From Trypanosoma brucei (taxonomy: Eukaryota): DNA of 64,000 bases. The stretch covers positions 992,001 to 1,056,000 of the forward strand of contig CP000069.1 in the NCBI GenBank assembly GCA_000002445.1, given 5' to 3'. Position 1 is the first letter of the stretch, and every line of letters starts with the position of its first letter. A model generated the notes under the pieces. The model made no database searches, was not told the origin of the DNA, and saw nothing but the letters and a program-made list of their open reading frames with translations. Of this stretch, positions 1 to 62,015 are shown one piece after another. The translations under genes were made by a program, and so were the position numbers.

Positions 1-150
1 AAACGTTATAGAGAGGGTGTGTTAGGATGAATAATAAAGGGAGACTCTGCCACAGTCGCCAGACCGATAGCATCTCAGGGCTCTACGGTGATGGCTGATG
101 GCCGTGCCAGTGGGGGGAAACTCTCACGAAGGCACGAAAAAAAAAATTTT
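1..150 (+). mobile_element. 3' terminal ~135 bp of an ingi/RIME-type retroposon plus poly(A) tail (141-150). The element body lies upstream of the window.
   Basis: Bases 1-134 are essentially identical to 9497-9634, the 3' terminus of the full ingi copy. In both places the match is followed by an A-run. The flanks after the A-run differ. Confidence 0.7.
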
Positions 151-1611
151 TAAAGTCTATAGGCAAACCTCTACCCTGATATGGCTAATGTTATCCGCTA
201 AGAGATTTTGTTCGTGTCAGTATAAGCAGATGTCTCATGCCACAAGAGAATTTACGTATGGTTTTTGCTGCAAACAAACCAAATGATATACTTAAGTTTA
301 CGTGTTTTCTTTCTTATAATTGAAATAGATGACATTATTTTGTCCATCTTTTTTTCCTTTTCTACTGACCAATCGCCTTCCGTATTTCTCATCCTGATGT
401 CGAATATTATTCCTGTTTCCTCATTTTTTATTTCAGTAAACAGCAATTTTGCACAGCTATCACTCGACAAAAAATATGTTAATAATCTGAATAGTAATGA
501 TTATATTATTATAAGAGAACACATTCATGTACGCCACTACTTCTCCCAGTAACAACGATAATCATACATAACATTGTATGTGCGTGTTCACGCGTTTCTC
601 GTACATTATCATTTCTTTTGTTGTAATGTCCCTGTTTGAGTCATCTCAATTGCGAGTTATTATAACTCTGGTTGTCCCTCCACTATCTTTGTTTGGGGGT
701 GGTGGGGTGTGTTAATGCTCTTTGCATGTGGAGTGGGGATAGAGGAATAGGGCCCTGCTTATGTGAAGAGTGTGTGAAGTAAGGATGATGAGAGTTACTT
801 ATAAGGTGTGTAATTATTTTGCGTGTGGAAAATGGTCTAAATGAGGGTGCTGAGAGGGAAGGTCTCTAATTATTCTGGGACTGTTTTGTGTGCTAGCAAC
901 TAACATAATATTCCATCATGCCAACGTATAATGAAAGGTTTCATTAATAAGCTTAATTTTCTGAGATGGTGTTTTGAAACCCCAATTGTTACCTTTACTA
1001 GTGTGTTGTTTAGGAAAATGGAACGCAAGAAGCTGTGTATACATATAGAGAGGGAAAGAAAGAGTATTTCCAGTACGCGTATGAAAGGAAGAGGATATGC
1101 TGAATAGGGCTCAGTAGCAGAGTTGTGTTCATTGGACAAGGGTAACACGTGCGTGCAAATTAGGCACGTGATGTGCCAGCGAATTAAGCTATTAAAGTAG
1201 CAACTGGAGCCAATGGAGGACTTGGAAAAATAGCATAACGTGAAGGTGCAAGTACTCATGAGGAGAATGGATAAGCTTGTTATTGATGGAAGGTGCAGCG
1301 CAGCTCAGTTGGAGGTGCGGTTACTTGGCATGATGGTTAGTGAAGTTTTTTTTTTTTGAATCAAGAAGTTAGGGAAAATGGGGTAACCAACAGGAAAACA
1401 CCTGTGAGGGAACTCAATGTTGATATACGGCTTGAGGGGAGGGTTCCATACAACTCTGTGTGCTTTGGGATGTGCTTCCTCTTTTGTTGAATGCTGCTGT
1501 AGTTGGTTTGTGTCAGGCACTTATTAATTTCGATATTTTTATGTGTCTGTTTGTTGTGTCTGTCAATAACAACAACAATTGTTATGACAAGCTTTAGTTT
1601 TCTCCTCCTTT

Positions 1612-3019
1612 TTGGCTGATGAACGTATAGGCAAAATCACGATGAGGCACGAAGCAGTGTTTGCCATTGGGATGCTTGCGGCTGTTTTATCTCCTTCCTC
1701 TCAGGGTGATTTGAATTCTTTCAAATGGAGGACTGAGATGTTTGACTGGAGCCAGTTTGCGGATGATGTGGATGAAAAAGAAAGGCACCACAACTTTGGA
1801 GAGTTCGAGACACTGCAAGATTTACAGAATTACGCAGGCAGAGGCCCCACAGCCTTCCTTCAAGAATCGTGAAAAGGAAGGAGAGATTCTGAAGAATTTG
1901 GAGGAAATGGTCAGTGAGGCAGAAGCTGTTGGTGGCAATAAGGGCTCGAACAATTCATCTAACAGCACGACAGCATATCAGGAGATGAAGAAACTATTTG
2001 AGAAGGCGAAAAAGCTTAAGGAGCAGATAGAGGTGAATAGGACAAAAGCCTTGAATGCAAGTCGCTCTGCTGAAGAAAATATGTTGAAAGCTGTGTATGG
2101 CGATGCTGTGGATGTGGCAAGAAACGAGAATAAAACTCTGGAGGAAGCCATGAGAGGAAACAAATCACTGCTGTTCAATAGTGTCTACAATGCAGACACG
2201 AGCTGCGGTTCTTTTGGAGACAAGTTAGTCGGAAAGACTCTAATTAATGACTTTTTCTGCCTATGTGTGGGAGAGGCTGTTGATTTAATTAAGAAGTTCG
2301 AAAAGCCAAATAATCATGTATATAAATTAGATGTTCCCGATAGCGATGATAACAATATATATAATGGGTTAAATTGTCCTTGTAAGGATGAAATAAGGAG
2401 ACCTAAAAATGGTAGTTGGACTATGATGGCTGCACATTGTAAAGGTGACAGCAGCAAGTGCAACCCCGACAATATAAGATACAACCATACTGAGGCATGG
2501 GATGTGATTAGTAGAGCTTGCGTGTACAAGAATATTGCATCTAATGTGAAAACCCTAAAGAGTGCATTAGCTCAGTTTGATGCGTTAGTGAATTTGGAAC
2601 AGGGCGGACATCAGGTGAAAGGTATTCTTGGTTATGTGAAAACATTAAACAACGAAAATCGCACATGCACAGGTCACACTGCTGGGTTTACATGCGTCAG
2701 TTACAACTACACACTTAAAAATGGTGGAATTCCATGGTACAACCGCCTCACTAACGCCACCAAGGAACTACAAGAAATGGCGAAGTATGCCAAAGAGGCT
2801 GACAGCCATCTTCATGAGTTGGAAGAATTCCAACATGAGGCAGAGGAAATATTTCTTGAAGTGAAGCTAGGTGGTGATGCAGAGCTATGGAAGAGTAGCC
2901 GAGGTAGGGATGATGGTGAAAGTGGCAATGCTGAAGTAAATAATAATGGATTCAACTATATAGATATAACAACTGATATTTTTACATTAATGATTCTATA
3001 TCTTTTTTGTATATTTTAG
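1612..3019 (+). pseudogene. VSG-like (GPI-anchored surface glycoprotein) pseudogene with a frameshift.
   Basis: A true ATG at 1642 gives a signal-peptide-like N-terminus (MRHEAVFAIGMLAAVLSPSSQG). The reading frame switches from frame 1 to frame 2 around 1742-1872. The ~430 aa continuation is Cys-rich with many N-x-S/T sites and ends in a hydrophobic GPI-signal-like tail (DIFTLMILYLFCIF). It sits beside ingi elements, as VSG pseudogenes typically do in T. brucei. Confidence 0.45.
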
Positions 3020-5402
3020 TTTATTGGTACGTTACCAACATTGTTGTGTAGTGTTTCGATTCTTTATTGTTTTTATTTGGATGCGTTCTTTCTTTTTTTT
3101 TCGAGCCTGACGGTATGTGAGTTTAAAATAATTGCATTTGAATTTTTTTTTCTTTCCTTTGAATGAATAATCAATGTGGTATCACTTTTTCTTTTGTTGG
3201 AATGTGTGTCTTGTCGTTTTTTTTGCTGTTATCAAGATAGCAGCATTTTTTTTTTTTGAAAGCTCGCTGTCGATGCTACGACATCTTATGGGAGCTGAAA
3301 CTTTATGTAACTTTTTTTTATTGTGTATCATGCTGCGTTGTCAGTGTACTATTAGCTTGTTACTATCTGTGTCGGATAAAGCTATATTTGTCTTGTTAAT
3401 GACTTTTATAGGTTGGGTCGGAACTAGTTGTAAAAGACAAGTAGGCGTTACTGAAATTTTAATTTTCAACCATTCGCTATGGCTGTAAAAGCGTACTTGC
3501 GAGTGAAAGGCTTCTGCCTCTTTTTTTTTTTTTTGAGCCAAACGTAGAAGAGCATAGTGGAGTTTACAATTTTCATTCAGAGGAGTGGGCAGCTTTTTGT
3601 GTAGTCTATTCTCCTTTATAGGGGTGTTCCTCTCGAATGAAGAAAGTACATGTTGGAAGAGAATGAGGGGTTTCTCAATTTCTAGGAGGAATTGTGCAAG
3701 GTTCTTGGTGAACACTATCTTCTGCATATTTTTGCCCTCAAGCCCGAAGTAACTGCGGAGCACTTTAGGCTTGAGCGCGCGAGTATGTGGGTGGGATTCT
3801 CTTCGCATTCGTTGGAGTGTGTATGTTTCCTTTCAACGCAGATTTCATGTTTTTGATGGCGATGTATAGATGAGCCTGATGTTGATTGGGACGTCTTATT
3901 TCGGTTTACGAACGTGAAGTGTAGATGAAACCCTCTGACGTTGAAGCTCCGGAGCGGTGGTGGAGATTCTTTTGCTACGGAGAAGGGATGCTGTCTATGC
4001 ATTCCCCCGAAGTGCTCCATCAGGCTGTCTTTTGATACATGCGTATGACGGCATTGCGTGCAACAGGTGTCATTTAGACCTATAGTTACCGTGTTCCAAA
4101 TGAGGGATACCTCTTGTTCTGTGATGGAACGGCTCCGTTTTGTACCAGCGTTACTATCCAGGGGATGGCCTCTGCGGTGTTGAATCTTGGTGCTTGGTGT
4201 TGTTCCCCCTTTTGATTGTGATACAAAGCTGCATTGCCTGCATTGTAGCGGCTCAGATGTGCCTACTGGGTCGTGCACTGGATGCCCTCTCGTTTCCGTC
4301 GCTCGGGAGCCCTTTGTTGGAATACTTGCATTCTCTTCGAGTTCCCATTGCCTTTTTATTCCTCGCGACCCCGTTTGCGGTTGTACTTCGCAGTATTTCA
4401 TCCCGTGACTTATCACTAGTCCAATTTACGTGTGAAATATATAGCTGCGAGGTCCATATATCGCTTCATTTTCTCCAGAGGTTGAACTGGTGGTGTTATC
4501 ACTTTGTTCATTGGTGTTGGGTTGATGCGGTCGGTTTTCACTTTGTGTGCCTATCCGTTTCTCCACCACTGGAATGATGTGCTAAAGCTGACCTCTGCTC
4601 TTTATTCCATGACGCATTGTCGAGTCTCTCTGCTCAATCAATTTGAACCCACAGATTCCTCACTGGAGTGTGTTTTTTATCATATTCAGTGTGGATTATG
4701 GTTCCGCCAGTGTGGGGTGGAAAGGGACTGCCGTTGGTCATGTAGTGTTTCTGTGGCCTGCGCAATGTTAGTACACCTGCGCTCTTGGATTGAAAAAGCC
4801 ACGTTCTGCGCAAACCCATTTGTGCTGTTTGATATTTTCATCTTCTTTCCGCTTCTCCGACATTTCATCGTCTAACTTTCTCGTTTTGCCGTGAAGGCAT
4901 CGAGTTTTGTGCCATGTGAGCCCTCCTTTGTTTCCATAGGATTTGTTACAGACACTGAGCACATACGACTTCGGTGGAGGGGGCAGGGGTTATAAGGTGA
5001 ACATTCCACATCACCGAACAGCAGCATCTTAGTGTGGATGATATACTGCTGATGGCACGCTGGCACGTGCCCAGCGAACGACAAATGAAAAACGGTGTCC
5101 CAGCAAGACGCTGCTGATCCCTGTGTTGTATGATGCCGAGGCCGGAGCACAGCAGAGTTCCCCATGAAAGGAACGCTGCTGGCTCTTGGTTTCCCCCGAT
5201 GATGCGGGGTACTGGACTCTGGCACCACGTGGAGGTGGCCGGCATCGCCAGAGGGCATCGCTGTATTCTCCCGATACCGATCACCATCACATATTTTTCG
5301 ACGTTATCGTTGGAGACGACACAGACTCACTGAGCTGCCCGCGGCTTTGAAAACCCATGCACGCATAGCTAAAAGCTGACTGGAGGAATTTCCGTCTCAA
5401 GG

Positions 5403-7775
5403 TTGACGAGTTCTGCAGAAAAATTGGTAGAGAAGAATGTCAACACCCTGGAACAGAAATTGAGCTCCGCCATCCGCATTGCGACGAAGGTCTCCGTTCC
5501 CCGTGGCTGCAGAGCAACGCCACCACATTGGACACCTGCGCTCGCGAAACTCGATGAAGAGATCGCTGGATACGGACCCTCTCACCGAAGGGAAAAGTTG
5601 GTAGCCACGCGTAAGCAGATCCTGGACCGCACCACAAAGAAGAGATGGAGCACGCTATGCTCCAGACTTGCGGTGTCAGACCGCTGCAGTTGGCACATTG
5701 TCAAGAAAGTATACGCGCCACGACCACTAACCACACCGGCTGTACTTGTTGATAACGCGGCCATCACGGACTACCGTCAAGCTGAGAGGTTCAGTAAACT
5801 GTACTCATCCCGCGCAAGAAGGCACCCCGACTCACACCCACCGGCACACATAAAGACGATAGCGAGTGAGTTTAGTCTCATCACGATAGCTGAACTACGG
5901 AGATCGATCAAACTGCTACCGAGTGGATCCATAGCCGGACCTGATTGCTTATACAACGAGGCACTGCAACATCTCGGTAGAGCAGCGCTGAATGTTGTGC
6001 TGAGGCTATTCAATGAGAGCCTACGAATGGGAGCCGTGCCGTCTGCATGGAAGACCGGTGTTATCATCCCCATCCTGAAGGCCAGAAAAAAGGAAGAGTA
6101 CCCCGAATCTTACAGGCCTGTGACGCTCACGAGCTGTCTCTGCAAAGTCATGGAGCGCATAATTGCCGCAAGGTTTAGAGACACTGTTGAGTCCCAGCTG
6201 ACGCCGCAGCAATCAGGCTTTCGCCCCGGATGCTCACCGCTCGAACAACTCCTGCACGTCTGCGCTGCCCTCTGCCGTCCCACGCACCAATATCGTACAG
6301 GTGCTGTATTCGTTGACTACGAGAAGGCATTTGACACAGTAGACCACGACAAAATTGCGGGGGAAATGCACAGAATGAAGGTATCACCCCACATTGTGAA
6401 GTGGTGCGTATCATTTCTGAGTAACCGAACTGGTAGAGTGAGATTCAAGGAGAAGCTTTCCAGAAGCAGAACATTTGAGCGAGGAGTGCCACAAGGAACT
6501 GTCCTTGGCCCAATCATGTTCATTATTGTCATGAACTCGTTGAGCCAACGCCTTGCAGAAGTGCCGTTGCTGCAGCACGGATTCTTTGCAGACGACCTGA
6601 CGCTACTTGCGAGACACACAGAGAGGGATGTCATCAACCAGACGCTACAATGCGGCCTAAACGTGGTGTTACAGTGGTCAAAAGAGTACTTCATGTCTAT
6701 CAATGTAGCGAAAACAAAGTTCACACTCTTCGGGTGTATAGGGCGCCACCCCCTTACATTGCAACTGGACGGCGAAAGGATAGGAGCTGACAGGACACCG
6801 AAGCTTTTAGGAGTAACATTCCAGTGTCTGCAAGGGATGGCAACACATGCGACCGAAACGAGACGCAAGATGGACTTCCGACTACTGCAGATAACAGTCA
6901 TCTCAGCTTCTATATGGGGGCCAATACGACAAGTGCTGAGAGCTTTTTATCTAGCACTCGTACAGGCACGCACCATGTGTGGCATTGAGGTATGGTACTG
7001 GGACGCTTCGGAACGAAGTCGCGACCTCCTTGCAGCAGCACAACACAAAGCCAGTCGAATCATAGCTGGCATACCGCATGGGACGCGCAAAGAGGACTCT
7101 CTGCTGGAAGCAAACCTCCTGCCACTCAAGACGACCACTCTTGTGCGCAGCATGAAATTCATGCTGATGTGTGAGTCACGAGGCGGATGTTTGCGGCGCA
7201 GTGCTGAGGAAGTATACCACAGCAAACATCCAGTCAGAGCCCTACATTCCCGCATCATGCGGTCCTACCCCCACCTCCGCATTGAGCCACGCGAGCACCC
7301 ACTAGAGACATCGACGCTCCGCCACAGCTGCCGACCGATATTTCACACGCAGATAAAGCCTGTGTGCGCTGATGACCCTGACGATGTCAAAAGGGAGGCT
7401 CCCGAAAAGTGGATTGAACGGCATTTTGCACGGAGGGGGAAGGAGCCACCGCGACGAGAGCACTACGAATTGTGGACTGATGGATCCGTGCCCCTCGGTG
7501 AGAAGTCCGGATCAACTGCCCTGCTCTATAGAAACAACACGCTGATTTGTGCACCCAAGACCGGAGCAGGGGAACTCTCATGCAGTTACAGAGCGGAATG
7601 CGTAACATTAGAGATAGGACTGCAACGGCTGCTGAAATGGCTTCCGGCATACAGAAGCACATCGAGCAGGTTGTCCATCTTCTCTGACTCGCTGTCAATG
7701 TTAACAGCACTGCAGACAGGCCCCCTAGCCGTAACGGACCCAATTCTGAGACGACTATGGAGGCTTCTGCTTTAA
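5403..7775 (+). pseudogene. Reverse-transcriptase ORF fragment of ingi copy 1.
   Basis: A 790-aa ORF with RT domain motifs (SGFRPGCS, VFVDYEKAFDTV, FFADD). It is interrupted by frameshifts before the RNase H segment. The track start codon is TTG, not ATG. Confidence 0.8.
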
Positions 7776-7790
7776 GTTCAGAGAAGGAAG

Positions 7791-8234
7791 GTGCGTATCC
7801 GACTGCAATTTGCGTCCGGCCATTGTGGCGTGAAACGGAATGAGGTTTTCGATGAAATGGCCAAAAAGGCCGCTGATTTACCACAGTTGCGAGACGCATG
7901 GATCCCCGACATCATTGCTTATGCGAAGCGAGTGCTTAGGTCGGAAGAAGTCCATGAGAACACTCATAGGTTTGGTATCACCTGCAACCACTTTCCAACA
8001 AAACATAAAGAAGAACTGACGAGGGAAGAGGAAACGGCACTGGCACGCTTTCGGGTTGGAGTCTTCAAGATACTATGGATGGATGTTGCGAAAGATCAAC
8101 CCGAGTGTGCCTCCACAGTGCCGATGGTGCAACCCGCAACATGCAGCAATAGGGCCAACAATACAAACAGTCCCAACTGTTGCGACACGCACTCTTCAGA
8201 GAACCTCCGAACCAACCAAATGTACGGAATGTGA
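7791..8234 (+). pseudogene. RNase H segment of ingi copy 1 (frameshifted).
   Basis: Motif LQFASGHCGVKRNEVFDEMAKKAA. Confidence 0.7.
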
Positions 8235-9519
8235 TGCCACATACCAATACCTGTCGAATGCTGTAACGCACATGGTAAACAAACATGGCTTTGTGCGAGC
8301 TGATGCCCTCCGGAGGATCAAATACGGCGATGCAACACCCGCAGTGGACATCCTCCCGGAGACCCCTCCAGTGGTGGCGATCGTTTCTTTACCATCGAGC
8401 ATACGAGTCCTGATGAGACCGCAGGTGCTTTACTGTACCCTCTGTGCCTCCAAATTCGCAGTGCCAGGCCGACTATTACACCATCTTAGAACAATACATG
8501 GCATAGGCAGCGGTAGTTGCCGCGTGAAAAGGGGGCGAGAGAGCGAGGACTCAGTGCAAGGAGATGGTAGCGTCCCAGCAGCCCCAGCCCCTCAGGAAAC
8601 ACGGAAGCTGCCGTTTCAATGTGACCTGTGCGAGGCGAGCTTCAGTACACGTTCTTCCCTGTCACTACACAAGAAATTCAAGCATAAGAGCATAGTGACG
8701 GAGGACGGTACCGTGGTGGTGTTGCAATTCCCTCGTAAGCGTGCTCGTGAGGGAAACGTTGACGTGCCGGGGAAAGGCGAGGTGCAGTGTGGTGTGTGTC
8801 CAAAAGTGCTCAGTTGCAGTGACTCCCTCATCCGACACTGTAAGGCTTTCCACAAAGGTGAGGGAGTCGAGCTTAAATGCAGCAAAAGCACAAAATTGCG
8901 TGCCACTGATTCCCCGCATACAAATGCATCCATGTTGGTGCGCCCGACATGCGGAAGGCAGTGTGCTAGCAAAACTGGCCTCACCCTACATCAAAAGAAG
9001 ATGCACGGTATGAAGGTAGAGCGCGCTGTTACCAGCCAACGCGGCGACTGCGAAGAAACGTCGCTGCACCTGATGAGCTGTCCCGGTTTGAAGGAGTTAC
9101 GTGTCAGGTTTGCGGTAGAAGGTGAGTGTGTGCAGGATATATGTTTTTCCAAAAGGCTGGCGCAATTTCTCATTGCGGTTGAACGGAGCCGGCCGCAGGT
9201 GAAGTCCTCACCTAATGTAACAGTCATACAACCCACTCTCCCTTCTGCAACTTCCCAGCTTATTGCTGAGAGTGGAGCTAGCAGGAAAAGCACCGGACGC
9301 AGGAATAGTCCAGACACCCTCAGAGAGGGGGTATGCAGTCAACAAGCAACAGAAACAGAAAGAGGGGGAGAGAATAATAAACAAAGAACAAAATTCAAAA
9401 CAAAAGGATTGCTAATTGACATTTTTGTGAGAGTCCGGGGTGGGAGGCTTCTCGCCCCATCTGCTGTATTCCGTTTAACTGCGGAACTACAACAAAACGT
9501 TATAGAGAGGGTGTGTTAG
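8056..9519 (+). pseudogene. C-terminal C2H2-like zinc-finger segment of ingi copy 1.
   Basis: Multiple C-x2-C...H-x3-5-H units (CTLCASKFAVPGRLLHHLRTIHG, CDLCEASF...HKKFKHK, CGVCPKVLSCSDSLIRHCKAFHKG). Confidence 0.7.
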
Positions 9520-9568
9520 GATGAATAATAAAGGGAGACTCTGCCACAGTCGCCAGACCGATAGCATC

Positions 9569-10750
9569 TCAGGGCTCTACGGTGATGGCTGATGGCCGTG
9601 CCAGTGGGGGGAAACTCTCACGAAGGCACGAAGAAAATTCCAAAAAAAAAAAAATAGAGAAGCATATATCCTGCACACACTCACCTTCTACCGCAAACCT
9701 GACACGTAACTCCTTCAAACCGGGACAGCTCATCAAGTGCAGCGACGTTTCTTCGCAGTCGCCGCGTTGGCTGGTAACAGCGCGCTCTACCTTCATACCT
9801 TGCATCTTCTTTTGATGTAGGGTGAGGCCAGTTTTGCTAGCACACTGCCTTCCGCATGTCGGGCACACCAACATGGATGTGTTTGTATGCGGGGAATCAG
9901 TGGCACACAATTTTGTGTTTTTGCTGCATTTAAGCTCGACTCCCTCACCTTTGTGGAAAGCCTTACAGTGTCGGATGAGGGAGTCCCTGCAACTGAGCAC
10001 TTTTTGGCACACACCACACTGCACCTCGCCCTTCCCCGGGACGTCAACGTTTCCCTCACGGGCACGCTTACGAGGGAATTGCACCAACACCACGGTACCG
10101 TCCTCCGTCACTATGCTCTTATGCTTGAATTTCTTGTGTAGTGACAGGGAAGAACGTGTACTGAAGCTCGCCTCGCACAGGTCACATTGAAACGGCAGCT
10201 TCCGTGTTTCCTGAGGGGCTGGGGCTGCTGGGACGCTACCATCTCCTTGCACTGAGTCTTCGTTCTCTCTCCAACTTTTCACGCGGCAACTACCGCTACC
10301 TATGCCATGTATCGTTTGAAGGTGGTGTAATAGTCGGCCTGGCACTGCGAATTTGGAGGCACAGAGGGTACAGTAAAGCACCTGCGGTCTCATCAGGACT
10401 CGTATGCTCGATGGTAAAGAAACGATCGCCACCACTGGAGGGGGCTCCGGGAGGATGTCCACTGCGGGTGTTGCATCGCCGTATTTTATCTTTCGAAGGG
10501 CATCAGCTCGCACAAAGCCATGTTTGTTTACCATGTGCGTTACAGCATTCGACAGGTATTGGTATGTGGCATCACATTCCGTACATTTGGTTGGTTCGGA
10601 GGTTCTCTGAAGAGTGCGTGTCGCAACAGTTGGGACTGTTTGTATTGTTGGCCCTATTGCTGCATGTTGCGGGTTGCACCATCGGCACTGTGGAGGCACA
10701 CTCGGGTTGATCTTTCGCAACATCCATCCATAGTATCTTGAAGACTCCAA
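9569..10750 (-). pseudogene. C-terminal C2H2-like segment of ingi copy 2 (3'-truncated).
   Basis: 393 aa, near-identical to 8056-9519 up to the truncation point. Confidence 0.7.
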
Positions 10751-11015
10751 CCCGAAAGCGTGCCAGTGCCGTTTCCTCTTCCCTCGTCAGTTCTTCTTTA
10801 TGTTTTGTTGGAAAGTGGTTGCACGTGATACCAAACCTATGAGTGTTCTCATGGACTTCTTCCGACCTAAGCACTCGCTTCGCATAAGCAATGATGTCGG
10901 GGATCCATGCGTCTCGCAACTGTGGTAAATCAGCGGCCTTTTTGGCCATTTCATCGAAAACCTCATTCCGTTTCACGCCACAATGGCCGGACGCAAATTG
11001 CAGTCGGATACGCAC
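10572..11015 (-). pseudogene. RNase H segment of ingi copy 2.
   Basis: 147 aa, identical to the copy-1 segment. Confidence 0.7.
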
Positions 11016-11030
11016 CTTCCTTCTCTGAAC

Positions 11031-13346
11031 TTAAAGCAGAAGCCTCCATAGTCGTCTCAGAATTGGGTCCGTTACGGCTAGGGGGCCTGTCTGCAGTGCT
11101 GTTAACATTGACAGCGAGTCAGAGAAGATGGACAACCTGCTCGATGTGCTTCTGTATGCCGGAAGCCATTTCAGCAGCCGTTGCAGTCCTATCTCTAATG
11201 TTACGCATTCCGCTCTGTAACTGCATGAGAGTTCCCCTGCTCCGGTCTTGGGTGCACAAATCAGCGTGTTGTTTCTATAGAGCAGGGCAGTTGATCCGGA
11301 CTTCTCACCGAGGGGCACGGATCCATCAGTCCACAATTCGTAGTGCTCTCGTCGCGGTGGCTCCTTCCCCCTCCGTGCAAAATGCCGTTCAATCCACTTT
11401 TCGGGAGCCTCCCTTTTGACATCGTCAGGGTCATCAGCGCACACAGGCTTTATCTGCGTGTGAAATATCGGTCGGCAGCTGTGGCGGAGCGTCGATGTCT
11501 CTAGTGGGTGCTCGCGTGGCTCAATGCGGAGGTGGGGGTAGGACCGCATGATGCGGGAATGTAGGGCTCTGACTGGATGTTTGCTGTGGTATACTTCCTC
11601 AGCACTGCGCCGCAAACATCCGCCTCGTGACTCACACATCAGCATGAATTTCATGCTGCGCACAAGAGTGGTCGTCTTGAGTGGCAGGAGGTTTGCTTCC
11701 AGCAGAGAGTCCTCTTTGCGCGTCCCATGCGGTATGCCAGCTATGATTCGACTGGCTTTGTGTTGTGCTGCTGCAAGGAGGTCGCGACTTCGTTCCGAAG
11801 CGTCCCAGTACCATACCTCAATGCCACACATGGTGCGTGCCTGTACGAGTGCTAGATAAAAAGCTCTCAGCACTTGTCGTATTGGCCCCCATATAGAAGC
11901 TGAGATGACTGTTATCTGCAGTAGTCGGAAGTCCATCTTGCGTCTCGTTTCGGTCGCATGTGTTGCCATCCCTTGCAGACACTGGAATGTTACTCCTAGA
12001 AGCTTCGGTGTCCTGTCAGCTCCTATCCTTTCGCCGTCCAGTTGCAATGTAAGGGGGTGGCGCCCTATACACCCGAAGAGTGTGAACTTTGTTTTCGCTA
12101 CATTGATAGACATGAAGTACTCTTTTGACCACTGTAACACCACGTTTAGGCCGCATTGTAGCGTCTGGTTGATGACATCCCTCTCTGTGTGTCTCGCAAG
12201 TAGCGTCAGGTCGTCTGCAAAGAATCCGTGCTGCAGCAACGGCACTTCTGCAAGGCGTTGGCTCAACGAGTTCATGACAATAATGAACATGATTGGGCCA
12301 AGGACAGTTCCTTGTGGCACTCCTCGCTCAAATGTTCTGCTTCTGGAAAGCTTCTCCTTGAATCTCACTCTACCAGTTCGGTTACTCAGAAATGATACGC
12401 ACCACTTCACAATGTGGGGTGATACCTTCATTCTGTGCATTTCCCCCGCAATTTTGTCGTGGTCTACTGTGTCAAATGCCTTCTCGTAGTCAACGAATAC
12501 AGCACCTGTACGATATTGGTGCGTGGGACGGCAGAGGGCAGCGCAGACGTGCAGGAGTTGTTCGAGCGGTGAGCATCCGGGGCGAAAGCCTGATTGCTGC
12601 GGCGTCAGCTGGGACTCAACAGTGTCTCTAAACCTTGCGGCAATTATGCGCTCCATGACTTTGCAGAGACAGCTCGTGAGCGTCACAGGCCTGTAAGAAT
12701 CGAGGTACTCTTCCTTTTTTCTGGCCTTCAGGATGGGGATGATAACACCGGTCTTCCATGCAGACGGCACGGCTCCCATTCGTAGGCTCTCATTGAATAG
12801 CCTCAGCACAACATTCAGCGCTGCTCTACCGAGATGTTGCAGTGCCTCGTTGTATAAGCAATCAGGTCCGGCTATGGATCCACTCGGTAGCAGTTTGATC
12901 GATCTCCGTAGTTCAGCTATCGTGATGAGACTAAACTCACTCGCTATCGTCTTTATGTGTGCCGGTGGGTGTGAGTCGGGGTGCCTTCTTGCGCGGGATG
13001 AGTACAGTTTACTGAACCTCTCAGCTTGACGGTAGTCCGTGATGGCCGCGTTATCAACAAGTACAGCCGGTGTGGTTAGTGGTCGTGGCGCGTATACTTT
13101 CTTGACAATGTGCCAACTGCAGCGGTCTGACACCGCAAGTCTGGAGCATAGCGTGCTCCATCTCTTCTTTGTGGTGCGGTCCAGGATCTGCTTACGCGTG
13201 GCTACCAACTTTTCCCTTCGGTGAGAGGGTCCGTATCCAGCGATCTCTTCATCGAGTTTCGCGAGCGCAGGTGTCCAATGTGGTGGCGTTGCTCTGCAGC
13301 CACGGGGAACGGAGACCTTCGTCGCAATGCGGATGGCGGAGCTCAA
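11031..13346 (-). pseudogene. Reverse-transcriptase ORF fragment of ingi copy 2.
   Basis: A 771-aa ORF nearly identical to 5403-7775 (for example EYLDSYRPV versus EYPESYRPV). Confidence 0.8.
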
Positions 13347-15452
13347 TTTCTGTTTCAGGGTGTTGACATTCTTCTCTCTACCAATTTTCCTGCAGAGCTC
13401 GTCAACCTTGAGACGGAAATTCCTCCAGTCAGCTTTTAGCTATGCGTGCATGGGTTTTCAAAGCCGCGGGCAGCTCAGTGAGTCTGTGTCGTCTCCAACA
13501 ATAACGTCGAAAAATATGTGATGGTGGTCGGTATCGGGAGAATACAGCGATGTCCACCTGGACACTGTGAAATTCCTTGATAGCGTCATATCAGGGGTGG
13601 GCTCCACGTGGTGGCGCGCGTACCTGGTGCACTCACCAGTGTTACATACCAGAAGCTGGTTGGAACTTAAATTTAACGTTCATTGAACGGTTAAGGACTC
13701 TTGTGTGTGCGGCAACGGGCGCCAGCTTATTTACCCACTCTTGCTCTTGGGTACGTTAGCAGGACCTAATTTTCCCCGCCAGTGCTCCACAAACAAATTA
13801 TGTTGGGTCAGTGGGCGGTCACCCATACCACTGCGTATTATTGAAGCGTGCTCTGTGGGGTTGAAACGATTCGGTTCGCTGGTGGATGGATTTTCGGGTA
13901 AGTCCCGATGCACATGTGAGGCTCGCGGCCAGTGGCGTGGCTTCTGTTAAGCGTAGCGATTACGTCTTGATTCCGTTTTTCTTAGTTTGGACGGTGTGGT
14001 GGCACATGCGGAGGCGGTGTTGGTTAACAGTCGCTGATAGCACCAACTGCGCATGTCCTGTTGTATGTTTCGCTTCCAGTCCCTCAAATGGCAGGGGCTT
14101 GGTAATTGACAAGGTGGTCCGCGGAAAAGCATGTGAAGATCTGAAAGTGTGTCTTGAATCCCTGTAGATATGGAGGTGGTGGCATCAATGCGACGACTTC
14201 CCCACTTCATCTTAATATATATGTATTAGCTTGAAGGAACGCATGGGAACACGCAAAGGCACGGTGATTGCAGGCCAGCTGTGCTGAAAGATGGGATGGA
14301 AATGAGAGTACCACAAACGTGAGGGTGTACTGCTCTTCTTTCCGCACGAAGCGTTTGTGTAGTAAATGTGAGGTATGGCAGGCGGCGCGTGCAGAAACGC
14401 AGTGTACGGAAAGCGACTCCCATCATTACGGGGAAATTTCCAAGGAGAACGACAACGGAATACACGTCAGCGGTGCGTCGCGCTTCCCGACGCATTCCAA
14501 ACATCGTCTCAGGGAGTTTGAGATGTCAAGCTTCTCATATGGGAATGTGGAGAAAGAAAAGAAGCCCACGTCGTCTTATGACTGGAAATACTGGAAGCCC
14601 TTTGCTAATCCTCTCAAACGATGCCCGGCGCAAAAGATGAGACACATAATATAGGTGACGGTGACTGTGGTGTAACTCTTGCCGACGGACTCGAAGCTGG
14701 CGAAGCTCCTTCGGGAAGAAATCAATATCATTGCGAAAACCTTCGAAACCGGTGGCGGCGGGTGCTCATTCACCCCCCTTCCCCCCTGGGTTCTTGTCCT
14801 CGTCGACCTTCATTTCGCACCGCATGCGTTGAGGGCCGTTCTGTTGCCGCCATCTGGTTGATGTTGATGAAGTTCTTCTTCTTTAGCCCTTTTATTTCCG
14901 ACGAAGGTGTCGCACACACGTGGGAAAACGCAGAGTGCGTTTGTGCGTATGGGGACTGAGACGCTCAAATCACTAAATATGCAACACGCTGACGTACTGG
15001 GGGTGAAAATAAAACGATGGAAAGAAGAAAGTTACCAACTTTTCAGAAATAAGCAAGCAAGTCACAAAAAGTTTATGCTTACACATTCGTGGTAGCCTGT
15101 GGTTCAGCGGTATCAACATTGTGGTAAACAATGGTTCAGTTGTTGTTCAAATATACACATTTGCTCACACAAAAATGAGCTCATTTTTTTTTTTTTTGAA
15201 ACATTTGATAATGGTATCATTTGGAAATTGGCGATGTAGATGTTTCGATATTAAATTACAGGGTATAATGACATCCAGTGATCGCCAACTCCGGTATTCT
15301 GATTTGACAGAGGGGCATTTCCTTTCCCCCAACCTTTTAGCATCGCTTTCCATGCCCGAATTTGTAAAAAAAAAAAAAAGAAATAACCGATTTTCACTCT
15401 ATTTGTCACATCTCCAGAGTAAAAGGTTTCCTTTCAACTGTGTCTGTGTGTG

Positions 15453-16388
15453 TTACCCGTGGGGAGGGGTGTCCCGACGCGCAGTTGTCGGCGCCGGGCA
15501 GGCTGCCCTTTTCGGTGGAGTGTCGGCTTGCGCAATGCGCACAGGCAGGCAAAAACAAGGACCACAATTCGCATGGCTAAACTTTCCCCAGTCTGCCAAA
15601 TCAGTGGCTGAGTGAAGAAACTGTGCTTCCTCAATTTTGGGGCATACATCGCTTACTTCGGCTTCTGGTTTGTATAACTGTGAAAATTTCCGCGTTCGTT
15701 TTTCTAATAGACCAAGATCACGTGCCACCTTTGCCTCCTGGCGTATTGCAGCAAGATGTGCGGCATTTGCTTCCTCCACTCGCCTTATGATGCGGTGCTT
15801 CTCGTTAATCAACCTTTTAAGTTCCCTTTCTGCGTCTGCATGTGCGGCCTGGGATGAGAGTCCCTCATTTTCCTCCTGCACAACCGAGTCATATGCGTCG
15901 CATTCCTTAATCTCGTTTTTCAAAGTCTCCAGCTTGAGTCGCAGCTGCCCAACTTCCATACTAAGACTATGTATGGAGTGCTTCACTTCGAGGTATTCCC
16001 GTCTTTGCAACGCTTCTGTGGGTGATTTCTTACCAACTGTCCCCTTGCCCGTATTGAAGCACGCACCCATACCATTTATTTTGATGATCGCCTCTTTCCT
16101 CTGTGAACGCGCGGCCTCAAGTCGCAATTCCAGTTTAACCACTTCACCGTAGTCAAGCACATCAGTTGCCATGGAGGCAATCTGATCCCCCAACAGCGCC
16201 TTCTCTTCAAGCAGTTTGCCCAGCAATTCTTCAAGATACCGAAGTTCCTCCTCATCTTCGCTAAGCTCCACATTCCGACGTACTTGTTTTGCATGAGCGA
16301 ATCTTCTGGATGAGGGCCGTGCCGATTCAGCTGCTTTCCCAACTTTAACCAAAGGGGCTGTTCCCGGTCTCTTGTTCTTTAGTGTCAT
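15453..16388 (-). CDS. Hypothetical coiled-coil protein (311 aa).
   Basis: ATG confirmed at 16386-16388. A long heptad-like charged region follows (EELRYLEELLGKLLEEKALLGDQ...LKLETLKNEIKE). Confidence 0.6.
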   Translation of the reverse strand: MTLKNKRPGTAPLVKVGKAAESARPSSRRFAHAKQVRRNVELSEDEEELRYLEELLGKLLEEKALLGDQIASMATDVLDYGEVVKLELRLEAARSQRKEAIIKINGMGACFNTGKGTVGKKSPTEALQRREYLEVKHSIHSLSMEVGQLRLKLETLKNEIKECDAYDSVVQEENEGLSSQAAHADAERELKRLINEKHRIIRRVEEANAAHLAAIRQEAKVARDLGLLEKRTRKFSQLYKPEAEVSDVCPKIEEAQFLHSATDLADWGKFSHANCGPCFCLPVRIAQADTPPKRAACPAPTTARRDTPPHG

Positions 16389-16863
16389 ATTTGTTTTGAT
16401 TTTTTAAAAACAAATTGTGTTGTCGTTGCTGTTGATGCGGCTTAATGTACACGTCGGGCTCGCGTGGGGAGTCGCCACACCACCGTAGGTGTCCCCCAAA
16501 GCTTTTTCACTCCGTAGTTAACGGTCTGGTGCTAGGTATTATTAGTTTTTCAGAAACGATTTATTGTAACGACGAAAAAAAAAAAGAGGAAAGAAGGGTG
16601 AAGCGGATTCCATAACCCACAACTAAATGGAAGGAAGAGAAATATCACGCGCAACACGTTAAAAGTGGCAATCTGGGGGGAGTAAGCATAAAATTAAAAA
16701 TACGGGACGGACCACGCAAACAAAATTATTACACAGTGCCATTTCTCGTGGAAGGGTGCATTCTTTACGTACAGGACCGAAAGGGGACTTTTTTCAAAAA
16801 AATAAATAAATAAAAGTAATGAACTGAGTGGTGCCAAGGAGAAGTGTGTAAAGAATAGCGCGT

Positions 16864-17913
16864 TCAAACTTGCGTCAGCAGGACATCCTTGCAATAGTCC
16901 ACCTCAAAATCCTCGAGGTCCTGTAGGTTTAGCGTTAACGTCCACAACCCGTGTGCCTTTACGCTCCGCCCCTCGCTCACTGGTGCATTGGCTACACTAA
17001 GGGGATCCATGCATTTCGTAACGGCCCACTTACGCTCCAGGGACAATTCTTCTCGAAGCGATTCCTGCATGAGATTCACAATTATGCGCCCTACGGGAAC
17101 CACTTCCCATGTGTGGTCCACCTGTTTACGCCTTATCTTACAGACACGCTTCAGTGCGTCCGCCTCTTGCACCGCCCATGCCGCTAAATGTATGTGCCGT
17201 GGTCCTTCACACGTTCCAAACAGCATATAGTCAAAGTTGCTCGTTTTATTACTAACATCGATAGCGCAGATGTCCCGGACCTTAAGTGACCGCAAAACTT
17301 CTAGTATCTCCTTTACATCTTCTATATATGCCTTCCGCCCGTCCTGCCAAGTTTCGTCGAGGGATCCCTCAACTTCCATTTCCAACAACATGTCTGCAAA
17401 CCGCTCGTCATCGTATGGAAGTGGCTGTTTCGATCCCGTGCTTGTGGGTTGCTGAATCGTCTCCTCCAGAGTGTCACTAGCCAAAACGCGGAGGGCGCTG
17501 CGACTGTTCGTCCGCTGTTCCTCCTGGCGACTGGAAATTGGAATGTTAAGCCGGGAAAATACCTGACCCTCTGGAATATCGTTTTCCCTGACGACGCCGA
17601 GTTCTGAAGAATCCCCCACTTCTCGCCGCGCACTGGCTGATCCCAGCGCATTTGTAAGATCATCCAGTTGGAGATCAACAAAATCGCTCTCCCCGCCATT
17701 GGAGAGCGGCAGCGGCGGCGGAGTCCCATCATTCGTGAACGCATCACTTGAATGCCAGCGGGCAGCTTTCAGCGGCAGGTGACAACACAACCGATTTCGC
17801 ATCCTTCCACTTTCGCGAATCAACTCAAAACAGCACCAACGAAACGAAGGCGTAGTTTGAAATACACCACGCGCATAGCAGCCAGGTGTTGATTTGCTAA
17901 AAATTCGCCGCAT
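16864..17913 (-). CDS. MALSU1 / RsfS (iojap, DUF143)-like ribosomal silencing factor with an N-terminal mitochondrial-targeting-like sequence.
   Basis: ATG confirmed. The core DICAIDVSNKTSNFDYMLFGTCEGPRHIHLAAWAVQEADALK matches the iojap/RsfS signature (DxxxLDVxxxxxxxDYFVIxTGxSxRHxxAIA). The N-terminus is Arg-rich with no acidic residues. Confidence 0.55.
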   Translation of the reverse strand: MRRIFSKSTPGCYARGVFQTTPSFRWCCFELIRESGRMRNRLCCHLPLKAARWHSSDAFTNDGTPPPLPLSNGGESDFVDLQLDDLTNALGSASARREVGDSSELGVVRENDIPEGQVFSRLNIPISSRQEEQRTNSRSALRVLASDTLEETIQQPTSTGSKQPLPYDDERFADMLLEMEVEGSLDETWQDGRKAYIEDVKEILEVLRSLKVRDICAIDVSNKTSNFDYMLFGTCEGPRHIHLAAWAVQEADALKRVCKIRRKQVDHTWEVVPVGRIIVNLMQESLREELSLERKWAVTKCMDPLSVANAPVSEGRSVKAHGLWTLTLNLQDLEDFEVDYCKDVLLTQV

Positions 17914-32800: not shown

Positions 32801-33446
32801 TGCTGTTATAGTCATTGTTCCCCCTTTTTCCCATCGTTTTCACACCTTTTTCAAAAAAAAAAAAAAGGTCATGTGCTGCTTAACTGCTGGGGGAAAACAA
32901 TGGCTGAAGAGGATGTGAATTCCTCCCCTAGCATTCATAAAAATAATAGTAATAAATGAAATAAAAAGTAATTTCTTTTGAACAATTAATATATAAATAT
33001 ATTTATATCCTCCGTTCATCGTTTTTCAATTATTATTTTTATTATTTTTATTTGAATTGCCGTCATTAACTACTCATTTTCAAGAAATGTGTTGACCTTC
33101 GCTCTTGAAGGTGTTTCCGTTTTGTTTGAGTACAAAATTGCAGATAAATCGCTTTCTTTTTTTTTGTTTCGTCTTCTCCCTTTATTCAATTTCTGTATGT
33201 ACTTCTTTTGTATTTTTAAAAAATATATAAATATATATATCTTTTCTCGATTTCAACAGACATTTGCAAAGGGAAGTGTAATGAGGCGAGGCGGGAGGGA
33301 GGGAAGGAAGGGAAGGAGTTTATGATGATGATGAGAGGAAAGGAAGCAGCACGACACCGTAACTGCAAAAATATCTCAAAGGTGAAAAAAAAATTTAATA
33401 AAAAAAAGACATAAAACAAAGCAAACGGAAAAGTAGAAAAAAGCTT

Positions 33447-33462
33447 CCCCCCCCCCCCCCCC
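33447..33462 (+). repeat. C16 homopolymer (G16 on the minus, transcribed strand).
   Basis: Read directly from the sequence. Confidence 0.9.
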
Positions 33463-40000: not shown

Positions 40001-40346
40001 TATAAATAAATATCTCATATTTGCTTCATTACTTCATTTCACTCATTTTATTTTACTTTTTTTTTTGTAACTCTCGTCTTTTCGTCACTTGTGTATCATT
40101 ACTCCGATAACATTTCATTTCCCTTCCCCTTTTTTTTCTCTTTCTCTCTATCTCTATCTCTTTTTCTTTTTTTAATTTGTTCCTTTTTATGGGTTCTCTT
40201 TCAGGCGATGGCACAAAAATAGTAATGATACCGATGGAAGTGTAAACAATAACAAAAAGAAAAAAAAAGAAAAAGAAAAAAAACCGAAAAAAGATGACGG
40301 TACCATCGGCGCCATTTTTCTTTTTTTTTTTTAAAGGAAGCAGCAG

Positions 40347-40372
40347 TAATAATAATAATAATAATAATAATT
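40347..40372 (+). repeat. (TAA)n microsatellite, about 8 units.
   Basis: Read directly from the sequence. Confidence 0.9.
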
Positions 40373-43300: not shown

Positions 43301-43580
43301 ATTTATTCTTCTGGTTACCTATCTGTTGATCTATTGATTGATTCATTTTGCATCGCTTTCCTTTTCCTTCTCTCCTTTTCTTTTGTGCTTTTGCATATTT
43401 TTTTATCTCTTATTCTCCTTTGCATTTTTTTTTTTGGTAAAGTGTGGAAAGGGAACTAAGAGGAATTCCTTTTTTAAAAAATAAAAATCCCCTTTCCCAC
43501 CTAAACCTCATATCTCAATTACGTTTCTCCTTCCTTCCTTTCTTATTTCCTTTTTTGTGTCTTTTTTTTTCCATTAATTT

Positions 43581-43599
43581 CCCCCCCCCCCCGCCCCCC
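43581..43599 (+). repeat. C12-G-C6 tract.
   Basis: Read directly from the sequence. Confidence 0.9.
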
Positions 43600-43640
43600 T
43601 CCCATTCAACTTCATTTCGTTCCGTCCATTTTAGATGTTG

Positions 43641-43661
43641 TATATATATATATATATATAT
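43641..43661 (+). repeat. (TA)10 microsatellite. Similar (AT)n runs occur near 18035, 28794-28817, 35666-35690, 38437, 38652, 40712, 60024 and 63075-63098.
   Basis: Read directly from the sequence. Confidence 0.9.
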
Positions 43662-61996: not shown

Positions 61997-62015
61997 GGGG
62001 AGGGGAGGGGAGGGG
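61997..62015 (+). other. Canonical G-quadruplex motif G4-A-G4-A-G4-A-G4.
   Basis: The plus strand reads ggggaggggaggggagggg, about 750 bp upstream (in transcription direction) of the REI1-like gene. Confidence 0.8.

Follow-up and report, generated by a model that had tools for sequence, protein, structure and literature searches.

Where does a polycistron stop, and what comes to occupy the place where it does? The window analyzed here (64 kb from chromosome 6 of T. b. brucei TREU927, spanning about Tb927.6.3390 to Tb927.6.3530, with DRBD5 = Tb927.6.3480 and ZFP1 = Tb927.6.3490 as numbering anchors) raises this question because of its left end, positions 1–15452, in which a reading of ORFs and Pfam domains found no intact gene. 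To the right of this island, the initial annotation had counted 14 convincing genes, all on the minus strand, and exactly 14 are there (15453–61257), with exact matches to TREU927 proteins AAZ11900–AAZ11912 for 10 of the 14, plus MALSU1. What, then, is the island? We argue that positions 1–15452 are, very probably, the core of a convergent strand-switch region (cSSR), a Pol II termination zone that is filled with dead ingi copies and is also a place of recombination and of a synteny break. Its parts, and the unit that faces it, are as follows:

1–146, plus strand: ingi/RIME-type 3' end ("L"), the terminal 143 nt and an A10 tail; 99% identical to ingi A 9495–9637
147–1641, plus strand: unique spacer S1; a polypyrimidine tract and AG closely precede the ATG of the pseudogene
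1642–3019, plus strand: ESAG2-family (GRESAG2) pseudogene, 455 codons with one frameshift; Pfam VSG_B 6.9e-22
3020–3714, no strand: nominal cSSR, the gap between convergent gene models, placed by published distances and inferred from matching ORF lengths
about 3521–4995, minus strand: degenerate ingi-related (DIRE-like) C-terminal zinc-finger (ZF) remnant, by weak colinear ZF matches
4995–5251, minus strand: inverted ingi/RIME 5' fragment, the first ~250 nt (5' hallmark; ORF aa 1–83), head-to-head with ingi A
5253–9654, plus strand: ingi A, dead and truncated at its 5' end (ORF aa 283–1656); RVT_1 7e-44, zf-C2H2
9655–9662, no strand: 8-nt filler (tagagaag) between the ingi A poly(A) and the truncated 3' end of ingi B
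9663–13662, minus strand: ingi B, also dead, with both ends truncated (ORF aa 247–1605), tail-to-tail with ingi A
13663–15452, no strand: unique flank between ingi B and the last minus-strand gene, up to its stop codon; the synteny break falls here
15453–61257, minus strand: 14-gene polycistron transcribed toward the island (ORFs, Pfam, exact TREU927 protein matches); order from the island: 311-aa protein (15453–16388, the final gene of the unit), MALSU1, kinase, further genes, DRBD5, ZFP1, RME-8, onward

Contents of the island

The left ~14 kb had been credited with three ingi termini or copies; ingi pieces do lie where they had been placed, and they number more than three. Matches to the 1656-aa ingi ORF (P0261) at 92–94% amino-acid identity are far beyond chance. 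Ingi A (88–94% to P0261) has the RT, the RNase H-region and C2H2 and ends in A13 (9642–9654); the endonuclease domain is absent from it, and its reading frame is broken by an in-frame stop (7773–7775) and a frameshift near 8050. Both defects are shared by ingi B, whose homology to ingi A stops at "gatatatg" and whose 5' end meets the flank at a junction conserved in IVM-t1 and gambiense. In their RT, RNase H-region and C2H2 ORF, their poly(A) tails and a 5' hallmark carrying a 2A-like motif, the pieces resemble the ingi/RIME/DIRE non-LTR retroposons. They differ in that all copies are dead, without an endonuclease domain and with a common stop codon and frameshift, and in that A and B are palindromic and the 5' fragment is inverted relative to A; target-site duplications were sought for ingi A and ingi B, and none was found.

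The 5' fragment (4995–5251) matches P0261 aa 1–71 at 91.5%; at 91% it also matches a full-length T. b. gambiense ingi at its 5' end (L003 19485–19730) and the RIME 5' half in T. b. equiperdum IVM-t1. Element L has its body to the left of position 1, and its junction with the flank is the same in IVM-t1. The degenerate remnant carries a poly(A) of its own, which on the plus strand reads as T14 (3521–3534); 4425–3718 gives a weak, colinear match to ZF 186–346 of the ingi zinc-finger ORF (E 3.6e-6), 3832–3401 matches ZF 346–377 (50%, E 1.5e-6), and the remnant also matches P0261 aa 1520–1592 (36–47%). Inside it sits an ATG-ORF, 4401→3715 (687 nt, minus strand), and no ESAG2 similarity was found in either.

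The sole ESAG2-like sequence in 1–16500 is the pseudogene at 1642–3019. It had been described as a frameshifted, VSG-like pseudogene; the frameshift and the place stand, and the family does not. It has the VSG_B domain, yet we rejected a VSG identity because all 16 homologues found (44–86% identity) are ESAG2/GRESAG2, so that of the "ingi/DIRE and VSG debris" once proposed, the ingi debris is there and the rest should read ESAG2-family debris. Apart from the frameshift, the pseudogene is full length, with a signal peptide and, at the C-terminus, a hydrophobic tail as in other members, to most of which it is 72–86% identical over 400 residues (one T. equiperdum member, 44%). Residues 1–58 are read at 1642–1815 and residues 59–455 at 1814–3013, hence a single frameshift (1814/1815), and two-frame tblastn against the family protein P0111 gives 64% and 86% over these two parts. 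Relative to the IVM-t1 copy, the frameshift is a 2-nt deletion, which falls after codon 58 and leaves no full-length product; the pseudogene departs from its family also in being chromosome-internal, at a cSSR, and not in an expression site.

Two stretches are unique. Spacer S1, in which neither ingi nor ESAG2 similarity was found, has a strongly positive GC skew, as expected of plus-strand sense DNA, and an empty RIME target site at about 1370–1381, where IVM-t1 has a 505-bp RIME flanked by a 12-bp duplication (TAGGGAAAATAA), another trait of the retroposon family. The flank 13663–15452, which presumably includes the 3' UTR of the 311-aa gene, showed neither retroelement nor ESAG2 similarity and is 98–99% conserved in IVM-t1, OVI and gambiense.

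The paired ingi copies

Ingi A and ingi B form a 3.9-kb palindrome (arms 5253–9149 and 9657–13555; 3899 nt at 98.9% complementarity), far beyond chance. The two are 99.9% identical centrally and about 96.5% identical over the last 900 nt; they differ at 44 alignment columns, 42 by substitution and the rest through one 2-nt indel, and these are clustered at the ends, with 4 differences within the central 2.8 kb. Each is only 95% identical to the ingi at the orthologous position of IVM-t1 and gambiense. The center of the pair appears to have been homogenized by gene conversion.

Is the palindrome real, or is it an artefact of the TREU927 assembly that stands for one real ingi? IVM-t1 (a PacBio long-read assembly) and gambiense each have one ingi, with a complete 3' end, at the B position, and repeats break short-read assemblies at the island, where the OVI and T. 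vivax contigs end. We nevertheless consider an artefact quite unlikely: an artefactual duplicate is expected to be identical, and A and B carry the end-clustered differences above and share neither their 5' breakpoint (ORF aa 283 vs 247) nor their flanks. Reynolds 2016 (PMC4721609) lists two adjacent chromosome 6 cSSRs at 0.99–1.01 Mb (in Lister 427 coordinates, not tied to the window), the only ones on that chromosome beyond 345 kb, with small RNA of 3010 and 5776 RPM; these levels match those of other cSSR entries (~3,000–6,400 RPM), which are taken to hold ingi. The 13-kb cSSR has about double the small RNA of its 5.5-kb neighbor, which fits two ingi versus one. The head-to-head junction 5251/5253 is found in a T. 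equiperdum OVI contig too. As for the small-RNA counts, the assembly behind them was presumably scaffolded on TREU927, which weakens that point.

The palindrome, then, we take as real. The island's internal arrangement differs among T. brucei-group genomes, and the differences are consistent with ingi-mediated inversion and gene conversion, in which ingi copies would act as substrates for DNA recombination. The ESAG2 segment of IVM-t1 lies in the opposite orientation to that of TREU927, which inversion between inverted ingi copies would best explain; that segment is just 91–94% identical, and it may instead be a paralogue rather than an inverted orthologue.

Read-through of the tail-to-tail pair, from either side, could also yield a long hairpin RNA and so feed the ingi siRNA pool. 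Long inverted repeats of T. brucei, IR1–IR7, do yield siRNAs (Tschudi 2012, PMC3447711), and the A/B arms are like them in kilobase scale, in identity (about 99%), in their short spacer and in being sited where Pol II transcription can enter. The pair differs in being absent from that list, where chromosome 6 does not appear at all, and in that its arms are retroposon copies to which reads are not uniquely assignable; hairpin-derived siRNA at this locus is putative.

The break in gene order

In T. theileri, T. cruzi and L. tarentolae, the order runs kinase, MALSU1, an orthologue of the 311-aa gene (recognized by sequence in T. cruzi and T. vivax, and in T. theileri and L. tarentolae by its place in the order), a ~600-aa gene, a cSSR and then RESC7. 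The 64-kb window lacks the ~600-aa gene, although it is a conserved one (52% among trypanosomes; E 1e-96 against Leishmania); RESC7 of T. brucei lies on chromosome 11, as Tb927.11.9140. The island's right border is thus a synteny break with respect to T. cruzi, T. theileri and Leishmania, and it would coincide with an evolutionary chromosome breakpoint at which the ancestral neighbors, the ~600-aa gene and then the convergent RESC7 unit, were lost from this place. El-Sayed et al. 2005 reportedly described retroelement-associated synteny breakpoints between trypanosomatid genomes. The present one is like them in that conserved gene order stops exactly at the island and the ancestral convergent partner is on another chromosome; it differs in that the break lies inside the ancestral polycistron, one gene before the old cSSR, so the present cSSR is a new pairing of units.

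One might then imagine the island not as a mere sink for insertions but as the relic of a subtelomere or expression site, internalized by chromosome fusion, given that ESAG2 and ingi/RIME are typical of such places and that the island lies exactly at the break. We judge this decidedly improbable: the analysis turned up no VSG and no further ESAG family, nor any 70-bp or telomeric repeats, GRESAG2 copies are spread across several core chromosomes, and a lone ESAG2 pseudogene is weak evidence of a former expression site.

Convergent units and termination

Pol II termination sites and cSSRs of T. brucei are reportedly marked by base J, H3.V and H4.V (Siegel 2009). The initial annotation had placed a strand-switch or termination boundary at the end of the minus-strand unit, and this is supported by a skew flip, by a plus-strand pseudogene that faces the 14 genes and by published cSSR distances. 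GC skew of the plus strand is +0.2 to +0.27 over 1–4000 and negative beyond 16 kb, with a sign flip at about 15 kb and a cumulative maximum at 14–16 kb. In Schulz 2016 (PMC4721952), Tb927.6.2470,.3300 and.3390 come near a cSSR with rising gene number, so the genes left of the island run rightwards; a plus-strand unit to the left of the window is supported, and this distance table is our one source for it. The gene orientation there, one of the things that had been named for checking, would accordingly be plus, with no minus-strand genes continuing.

S6 Table of the same paper puts Tb927.6.3390 and Tb927.6.3400 at 1379 and 688 nt from the cSSR edge. By a coincidence of lengths (1378 nt + 1 and 687 nt + 1), the first is probably the pseudogene 1642–3019 and the second probably the ORF 4401→3715, although the published description of Tb927.6.3400 ("ESAG2, frameshift") misfits that ORF. 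The nominal cSSR between them takes in the tail of the degenerate element. Antisense RNA over both models rises when J and H3.V are removed; for Tb927.6.3400 (S2 Data), log2 RPKM is −2.48 in wild type, −0.28 in J-null, −1.76 in H3.V-null and +0.12 in both-null, about 6-fold up without both, as read by uniquely mapping RNA-seq, which is blind within ingi copies. Sense RNA of Tb927.6.3400 is essentially absent: wild type, J-null and both-null all sit at the floor of −9.97, and H3.V-null gives −5.98.

Could there be no strand switch at all, only an internal retroelement cluster or a head-to-tail boundary in a continuing minus-strand cluster, with the pseudogene as a passenger? The IVM-t1 ESAG2 copy beside the island is on the polycistron's strand, and the nearest gene model of that genome is co-directional. 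We hold this to be very improbable, because the distances of Tb927.6.2470,.3300 and.3390 fit plus-strand genes running toward a cSSR just past.3390, the skew of 1–4000 is strongly plus-sense, and in three outgroups, too, the syntenic unit runs into a cSSR, one or two genes farther along. The suggestion of a centromere-proximal region, within an ingi/DIRE-rich domain flanking an AT-rich array, scarcely deserves credence: like centromeric domains, the island holds ingi/DIRE between directional gene clusters, but the chromosome 6 array maps between Tb927.6.180 and Tb927.6.190 (Obado 2007, PMC1868937), >300 gene numbers from Tb927.6.3390–3530, Tandem Repeats Finder found no array in the island (and just two trivial ones across 64 kb), and the AT-rich stretches (GC ~0.3) at 30–36 and 37–45 kb of the window are non-repetitive and sit immediately 3' of DRBD5 and ZFP1, where long 3' UTRs would lie.

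The island is thus nothing out of the ordinary: it is not a centromere, it belongs to a familiar class of region, and its locus is already catalogued. Like other T. brucei cSSRs (PMC4721952, PMC4721609), it is a gene-free place on which two polycistrons converge, it features in published cSSR analyses, and antisense read-through at its flanking models goes up when J and H3.V are lost. It exceeds the 1–5 kb cSSRs of the metaplots in size because about 10 kb of retroelement DNA was inserted, and, since a retroelement ORF was annotated as a gene, the nominal cSSR of the annotation spans only about 0.7 kb. A plus-strand unit would come from the left, with the frameshifted ESAG2 pseudogene as its last gene model, and the 14-gene minus-strand unit from the right, with the 311-aa gene as its final one; some 12 kb separate the two and would code for nothing functional. 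Termination in this zone would depend on base J and H3.V chromatin, as the published RNA-seq rather than the DNA itself suggests, and the dead ingi-clade copies that fill it would persist because insertions there break no gene or polycistron.

The strand switch and the genes that lead to it

The left ~14 kb of the window were read in the initial annotation as a termination or strand-switch boundary at the end of a minus-strand transcription unit, and that observation as a whole is confirmed. We call positions 1-15452 the island. The 14 minus-strand genes that it claimed are all present, between 15453 and 61257. Ten ORFs of the window, together with MALSU1, are sequence-identical in an exact-protein look-up to TREU927 proteins AAZ11900-AAZ11912 of chromosome 6, and because gene numbers go up as the window coordinate goes up, the window stands in chromosome orientation. 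Three of the genes matter here:

Minus-strand genes to the right of the island
15453-16388, minus strand: gene for a 311-aa protein
35974-37017, minus strand: DRBD5 (Tb927.6.3480), a two-RRM protein
45004-45312, minus strand: ZFP1 (Tb927.6.3490), a 102-aa CCCH protein

The first of these should be Tb927.6.3410, if one counts back along the protein accessions. The other two, genes for developmental RNA-binding proteins, are each adjoined on their 3' side by an AT-rich, nonrepetitive and ORF-free stretch (29859-35973 and 37018-45003, ~6 and ~8 kb, GC 0.26-0.32), and these stretches look like very long 3' UTRs. At the other end of the window, past the last minus-strand gene (60145-61257), GC falls to 0.34-0.36 in 61300-64000, and a plus-strand ORF of 171 aa at 61879-62394 matched no known protein in an exact-sequence look-up.

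What, then, meets this unit from the left? On the plus strand, GC skew measures +0.2 to +0.27 in positions 1-4000, is below zero past 16 kb, and has its cumulative maximum at 14-16 kb; read from base composition, this is the change of a convergent switch. Opposing units converge here: on the left stand a plus-strand pseudogene and a skew of plus sense, and on the right 14 minus-strand genes. Published distances extend the argument beyond the window: for Tb927.6.2470, Tb927.6.3300 (GPI14), and Tb927.6.3390, the distance to the convergent strand-switch region (cSSR) falls and the distance to the 5' head-to-tail site rises by identical amounts (Schulz 2016, S6 Table, PMC4721952), which places all three on a single unit directed rightward into the island. 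By that table, it is plus-strand genes that approach from the left and not a continuation of the minus-strand ones.

The same work speaks to termination. Antisense log2 RPKM of Tb927.6.3400 is -2.48 in wild type, -0.28 without base J, -1.76 without H3.V, and +0.12 with both removed (Schulz 2016, S2 Data, PMC4721952), and in the J/H3.V double mutant antisense RPKM of both Tb927.6.3400 and Tb927.6.3390 rises more than 4-fold; sense RNA of Tb927.6.3400 is essentially absent: only in the H3.V-null, at -5.98, does it leave the floor of -9.97 shared by the other three genotypes. From these published antisense values we infer J/H3.V-dependent termination at this site, and the reading is the same under either strand assignment. 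A boundary at the end of the minus-strand unit is thus supported by GC skew, by the distance table, and by antisense read-through.

Small RNAs add some loose support. Reynolds 2016 (PMC4721609) lists two adjacent cSSRs on chromosome 6, at 987,390-992,887 and 995,924-1,008,942, which are the only ones beyond 345 kb, with 3010 and 5776 RPM of small RNA, the ratio expected for one versus two copies of the ingi retroposon; other cSSR entries reach ~3,000-6,400 RPM, and entries in that range we take to be retroelement-containing sites. Between those coordinates, which are of Lister 427, and the coordinates of the window, no consistent offset was found. The main texts of the literature yielded nothing useful on Tb927.6.3360-3450.

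The initial annotation also allowed that the region might be centromere-proximal, and this alternative is refuted. The AT-rich array and Topo-II cleavage site of chromosome 6 map between Tb927.6.180 and Tb927.6.190 (Obado 2007, PMC1868937), and the island holds no AT-rich tandem array of units of about 30 bp or 147 bp, the arrays of 87 nt and 81 nt lying elsewhere in the window. Searches of the island for boundary markers such as tRNA genes, Rfam families, and tandem arrays found none.

Retroelement and pseudogene anatomy of the island

The elements were measured against two rulers, the full-length ingi 5' end of T. b. gambiense and a 1656-aa ingi protein:

Features of the island
1-143, then A10 at 137-146, plus strand: L, an ingi 3' tail, 99% identical to 9495-9637 of ingi A
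1642-3019, plus strand: ESAG2-family pseudogene (Pfam VSG_B; homologues all ESAG2/GRESAG2)
3521-4995, minus strand: zinc-finger remnant of a much older ingi-related element, with a poly(A) of its own
5251 to 4995, minus strand: first ~250 nt of ingi/RIME, ORF aa 1-83
5253-9654, plus strand: ingi A, ORF aa 283-1656, ending in A13 (9642-9654)
9663-13662, minus strand: ingi B, ORF aa 247-1605, without its last ~490 nt

No retroelement or ESAG2 remnants were found in 147-1641 or 13663-15452. Because positions 1-143 match the 3' end of ingi A and are followed by an A-run, the start of the window falls inside the tail of an ingi on the plus strand (L).

The gene at 1642-3019 was described at first as a frameshifted VSG-like pseudogene; the frameshift stands, and the VSG identity does not. 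Its sole Pfam match is VSG_B, a domain that ESAG2 also has, and a homologue search (E<=1e-5) gave 16 proteins, every one of them ESAG2/GRESAG2 and none a VSG. Similarity to that family is full-length, with VSG_B, signal peptide, and hydrophobic C-terminus (family HMM E 1.6e-235). Codons 1-58, including the signal peptide, lie in one frame and codons 59-455 in the next; the frame changes at 1814/1815, through a 2-nt deletion relative to the copy in T. b. equiperdum IVM-t1, and the open reading frame is not intact. We class the gene as a pseudogene of the ESAG2 family, damaged at one place, and not as a VSG.

The published table complicates matters by labeling both Tb927.6.3390 and Tb927.6.3400 "ESAG2, frameshift," with gene starts 1379 and 688 nt from the cSSR edge (Schulz 2016, S6 Table, PMC4721952). 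A search of the window by tblastn and family HMM gave no second ESAG2 pseudogene; there is one ESAG2-like sequence only, of 1378 nt, and 696 nt to its right stands an ATG-ORF of 687 nt on the minus strand (4401 to 3715). The published numbers are exactly these two lengths plus 1, and it is on these length matches that we assign Tb927.6.3390 to 1642-3019 (plus) and Tb927.6.3400 to 3715-4401 (minus). The shorter ORF shows no likeness to ESAG2 (HMM E=16); it resembles instead the ingi zinc-finger region, to which 3521-4995 on the minus strand gives colinear matches in three frames at 21-50% identity, and by this comparison with ingi the remnant may be a DIRE (degenerate ingi/L1Tc-related element). 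If the length assignment is right, Tb927.6.3400 would really be a retroelement remnant; its published annotation looks wrong, and appears to narrow the nominal cSSR to ~0.7 kb.

Ingi A and B retain the reverse transcriptase domain (RVT_1, 7e-44; both are 93-94% identical to aa 247/342-1217 of the ingi protein) and the C2H2 zinc-finger region (Pfam zf-C2H2 matches), and poly(A) is found on A and L. No Exo_endo_phos match betrays the N-terminal AP-endonuclease domain that an autonomous copy needs, the ORF being entered only at aa 283 in A and at aa 247 in B, and an in-frame stop and a frameshift are common to both. They are dead, truncated, non-autonomous relics. Inspection of the junction sequences, which are rearranged in both, disclosed no recognizable target-site duplication for either.

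The 5' hallmark of ingi/RIME is present in the window only as the detached, inverted fragment at 5251 to 4995, which is 91% identical to the 5' ends of the gambiense full-length ingi and the IVM-t1 RIME. This piece (4995-5253) abuts ingi A at ORF aa 283, in a junction that resembles a twin-priming 5' inversion with a deletion of ~600 nt; the head-to-head junction at 5251/5253 is found in a contig of T. equiperdum OVI too. The outer breakpoint of the fragment lies at most 1 nt from the RIME 5'-half/3'-half junction, within a 2A-like DVEENPGP motif.

Lying tail to tail, A and B make a palindrome whose arms, 507 nt apart, match over 3899 nt at 98.9% identity, the interval being the unpaired 3' end and poly(A) of A plus an 8-nt filler. 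The differences, 44 alignment columns in all, gather toward the ends, the central 2.8 kb having 4 of them and the last 900 nt ~32; compared with the ingi that occupies the B position in IVM-t1 and in gambiense, either copy reaches just 95% identity. Such a pattern of differences is what would be expected from gene conversion between the palindrome arms. An older, larger palindrome (3400-5260 against 13540-15460) was considered and rejected, its matches being chance ones of just 12-16 nt.

Related strains and the wider gene order

IVM-t1 (L002) shares with the window the flank of ingi B and its 5' junction, but has that ingi with a complete 3' end. After it come an L-type junction and the spacer 147-1379, in reversed orientation relative to TREU927, then a 505-bp RIME (L002 18394-18899), and then an ESAG2 copy on the polycistron strand. 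The RIME is an insertion polymorphism, with a 12-bp target duplication (TAGGGAAAATAA) in IVM-t1 and an empty site at 1370-1381 in TREU927. A crossover between the inverted L (plus) and B (minus) probably interconverts the two arrangements. The IVM-t1 segment is just 91-94% identical to the window and mosaic, and its ESAG2 copy (L002 19175-20545) bears a different lesion, being without the 2-nt deletion but with an in-frame premature stop near 20123, so that orthology with the window segment, as judged from sequence, is no more than likely. Identity between the two ESAG2 copies is itself a mosaic, from 98% to 82% in 250-nt bins, and suggests that they decayed independently and exchanged sequence by conversion with other members of the family. 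Among the ingi reverse transcriptase proteins listed, through which the far side of the IVM-t1 arrangement was sought, the only chromosome 6 member sat at the chromosome end.

T. b. gambiense DAL972 (L003 17178-20936) has two ingi copies in tandem orientation, the one at the B position with a full tail and the second with an intact 5' end; they lie ~2.3 kb apart, and the interval, including an N-gap, is unmatched in the window. The scaffold of T. equiperdum OVI was rejected as evidence on orientation, its pieces being separated by an N-gap.

Farther afield, T. theileri, T. cruzi, and L. tarentolae share one order: kinase, MALSU1, 311-aa orthologue, ~600-aa gene, cSSR, RESC7. The 311-aa orthologue was confirmed by sequence for T. 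cruzi, as also for T. vivax; for T. theileri and L. tarentolae it was assigned from its position.

The ~600-aa gene, function unknown
T. theileri (L009): 13246-15036
T. cruzi (L010): 13119-14819
L. tarentolae (L012): 15455-17371

This gene, with 52% identity between T. theileri and T. cruzi and E 1e-96 to Leishmania, has left no trace in the window, and RESC7 of T. brucei is Tb927.11.9140, on chromosome 11; the conserved order therefore breaks off precisely at the island's right-hand edge. On the evidence of gene order, the present convergent pairing of units is derived. The T. vivax contig (L011) ends 1.9 kb past MALSU1 and does not inform on this order. Both short-read assemblies, OVI (L001) and T. 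vivax, break <2 kb downstream of the 311-aa orthologue, a hint that T. vivax, too, has repeats here.

Dead retroposons at a boundary

Orientations, retroelement anatomy, the frameshift, strain differences, and the synteny break were obtained in this analysis; the read-through numbers are published ones. How might they fit together? Pol II arriving from both sides would stop in J/H3.V chromatin within 3-15 kb; ingi copies might persist in the island since insertions there would be harmless, and, once there, they could mediate conversion and inversion. Recombination between inverted ingi copies would flip a segment of ~14 kb between strains, moving the ESAG2 gene model to the opposing polycistron and shifting the point at which the units meet. 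The A/B pair would sit where both polycistrons run out, and read-through of the palindrome could give a hairpin RNA with a 3.9-kb stem that feeds the ingi siRNA pool, a hard-wired source that we propose would be somewhat like a piRNA-cluster trap. The island is not among the seven siRNA-producing inverted repeats of Tschudi 2012 (PMC3447711), and has no entry in the inverted-repeat and convergent-unit tables of that paper; multi-mapping reads cannot decide for or against such a hairpin source. That the ingi copies of this cSSR are more than inert debris, both flipping a segment and supplying hairpin siRNA, is a joint proposal that we offer tentatively and think rather doubtful.

Regions of this kind are well known, and published analyses of cSSRs have already drawn on this annotated locus; what is modestly new is the palindrome, the breakpoint, and an inversion that is probably polymorphic, and the current view of trypanosome genome organization stays unaltered. 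For annotation the outcome is threefold: a probable termination zone takes up the left end of the window, the "VSG-like" gene is an ESAG2 pseudogene, and the region is not centromeric. The locus offers a compact case of dead retroposons at a polycistron boundary that apparently drive structural change, seen here as gene conversion, the probable inversion, and a chromosome breakpoint of long standing, and the hairpin idea, if true, would link termination zones to the silencing of retroposons.
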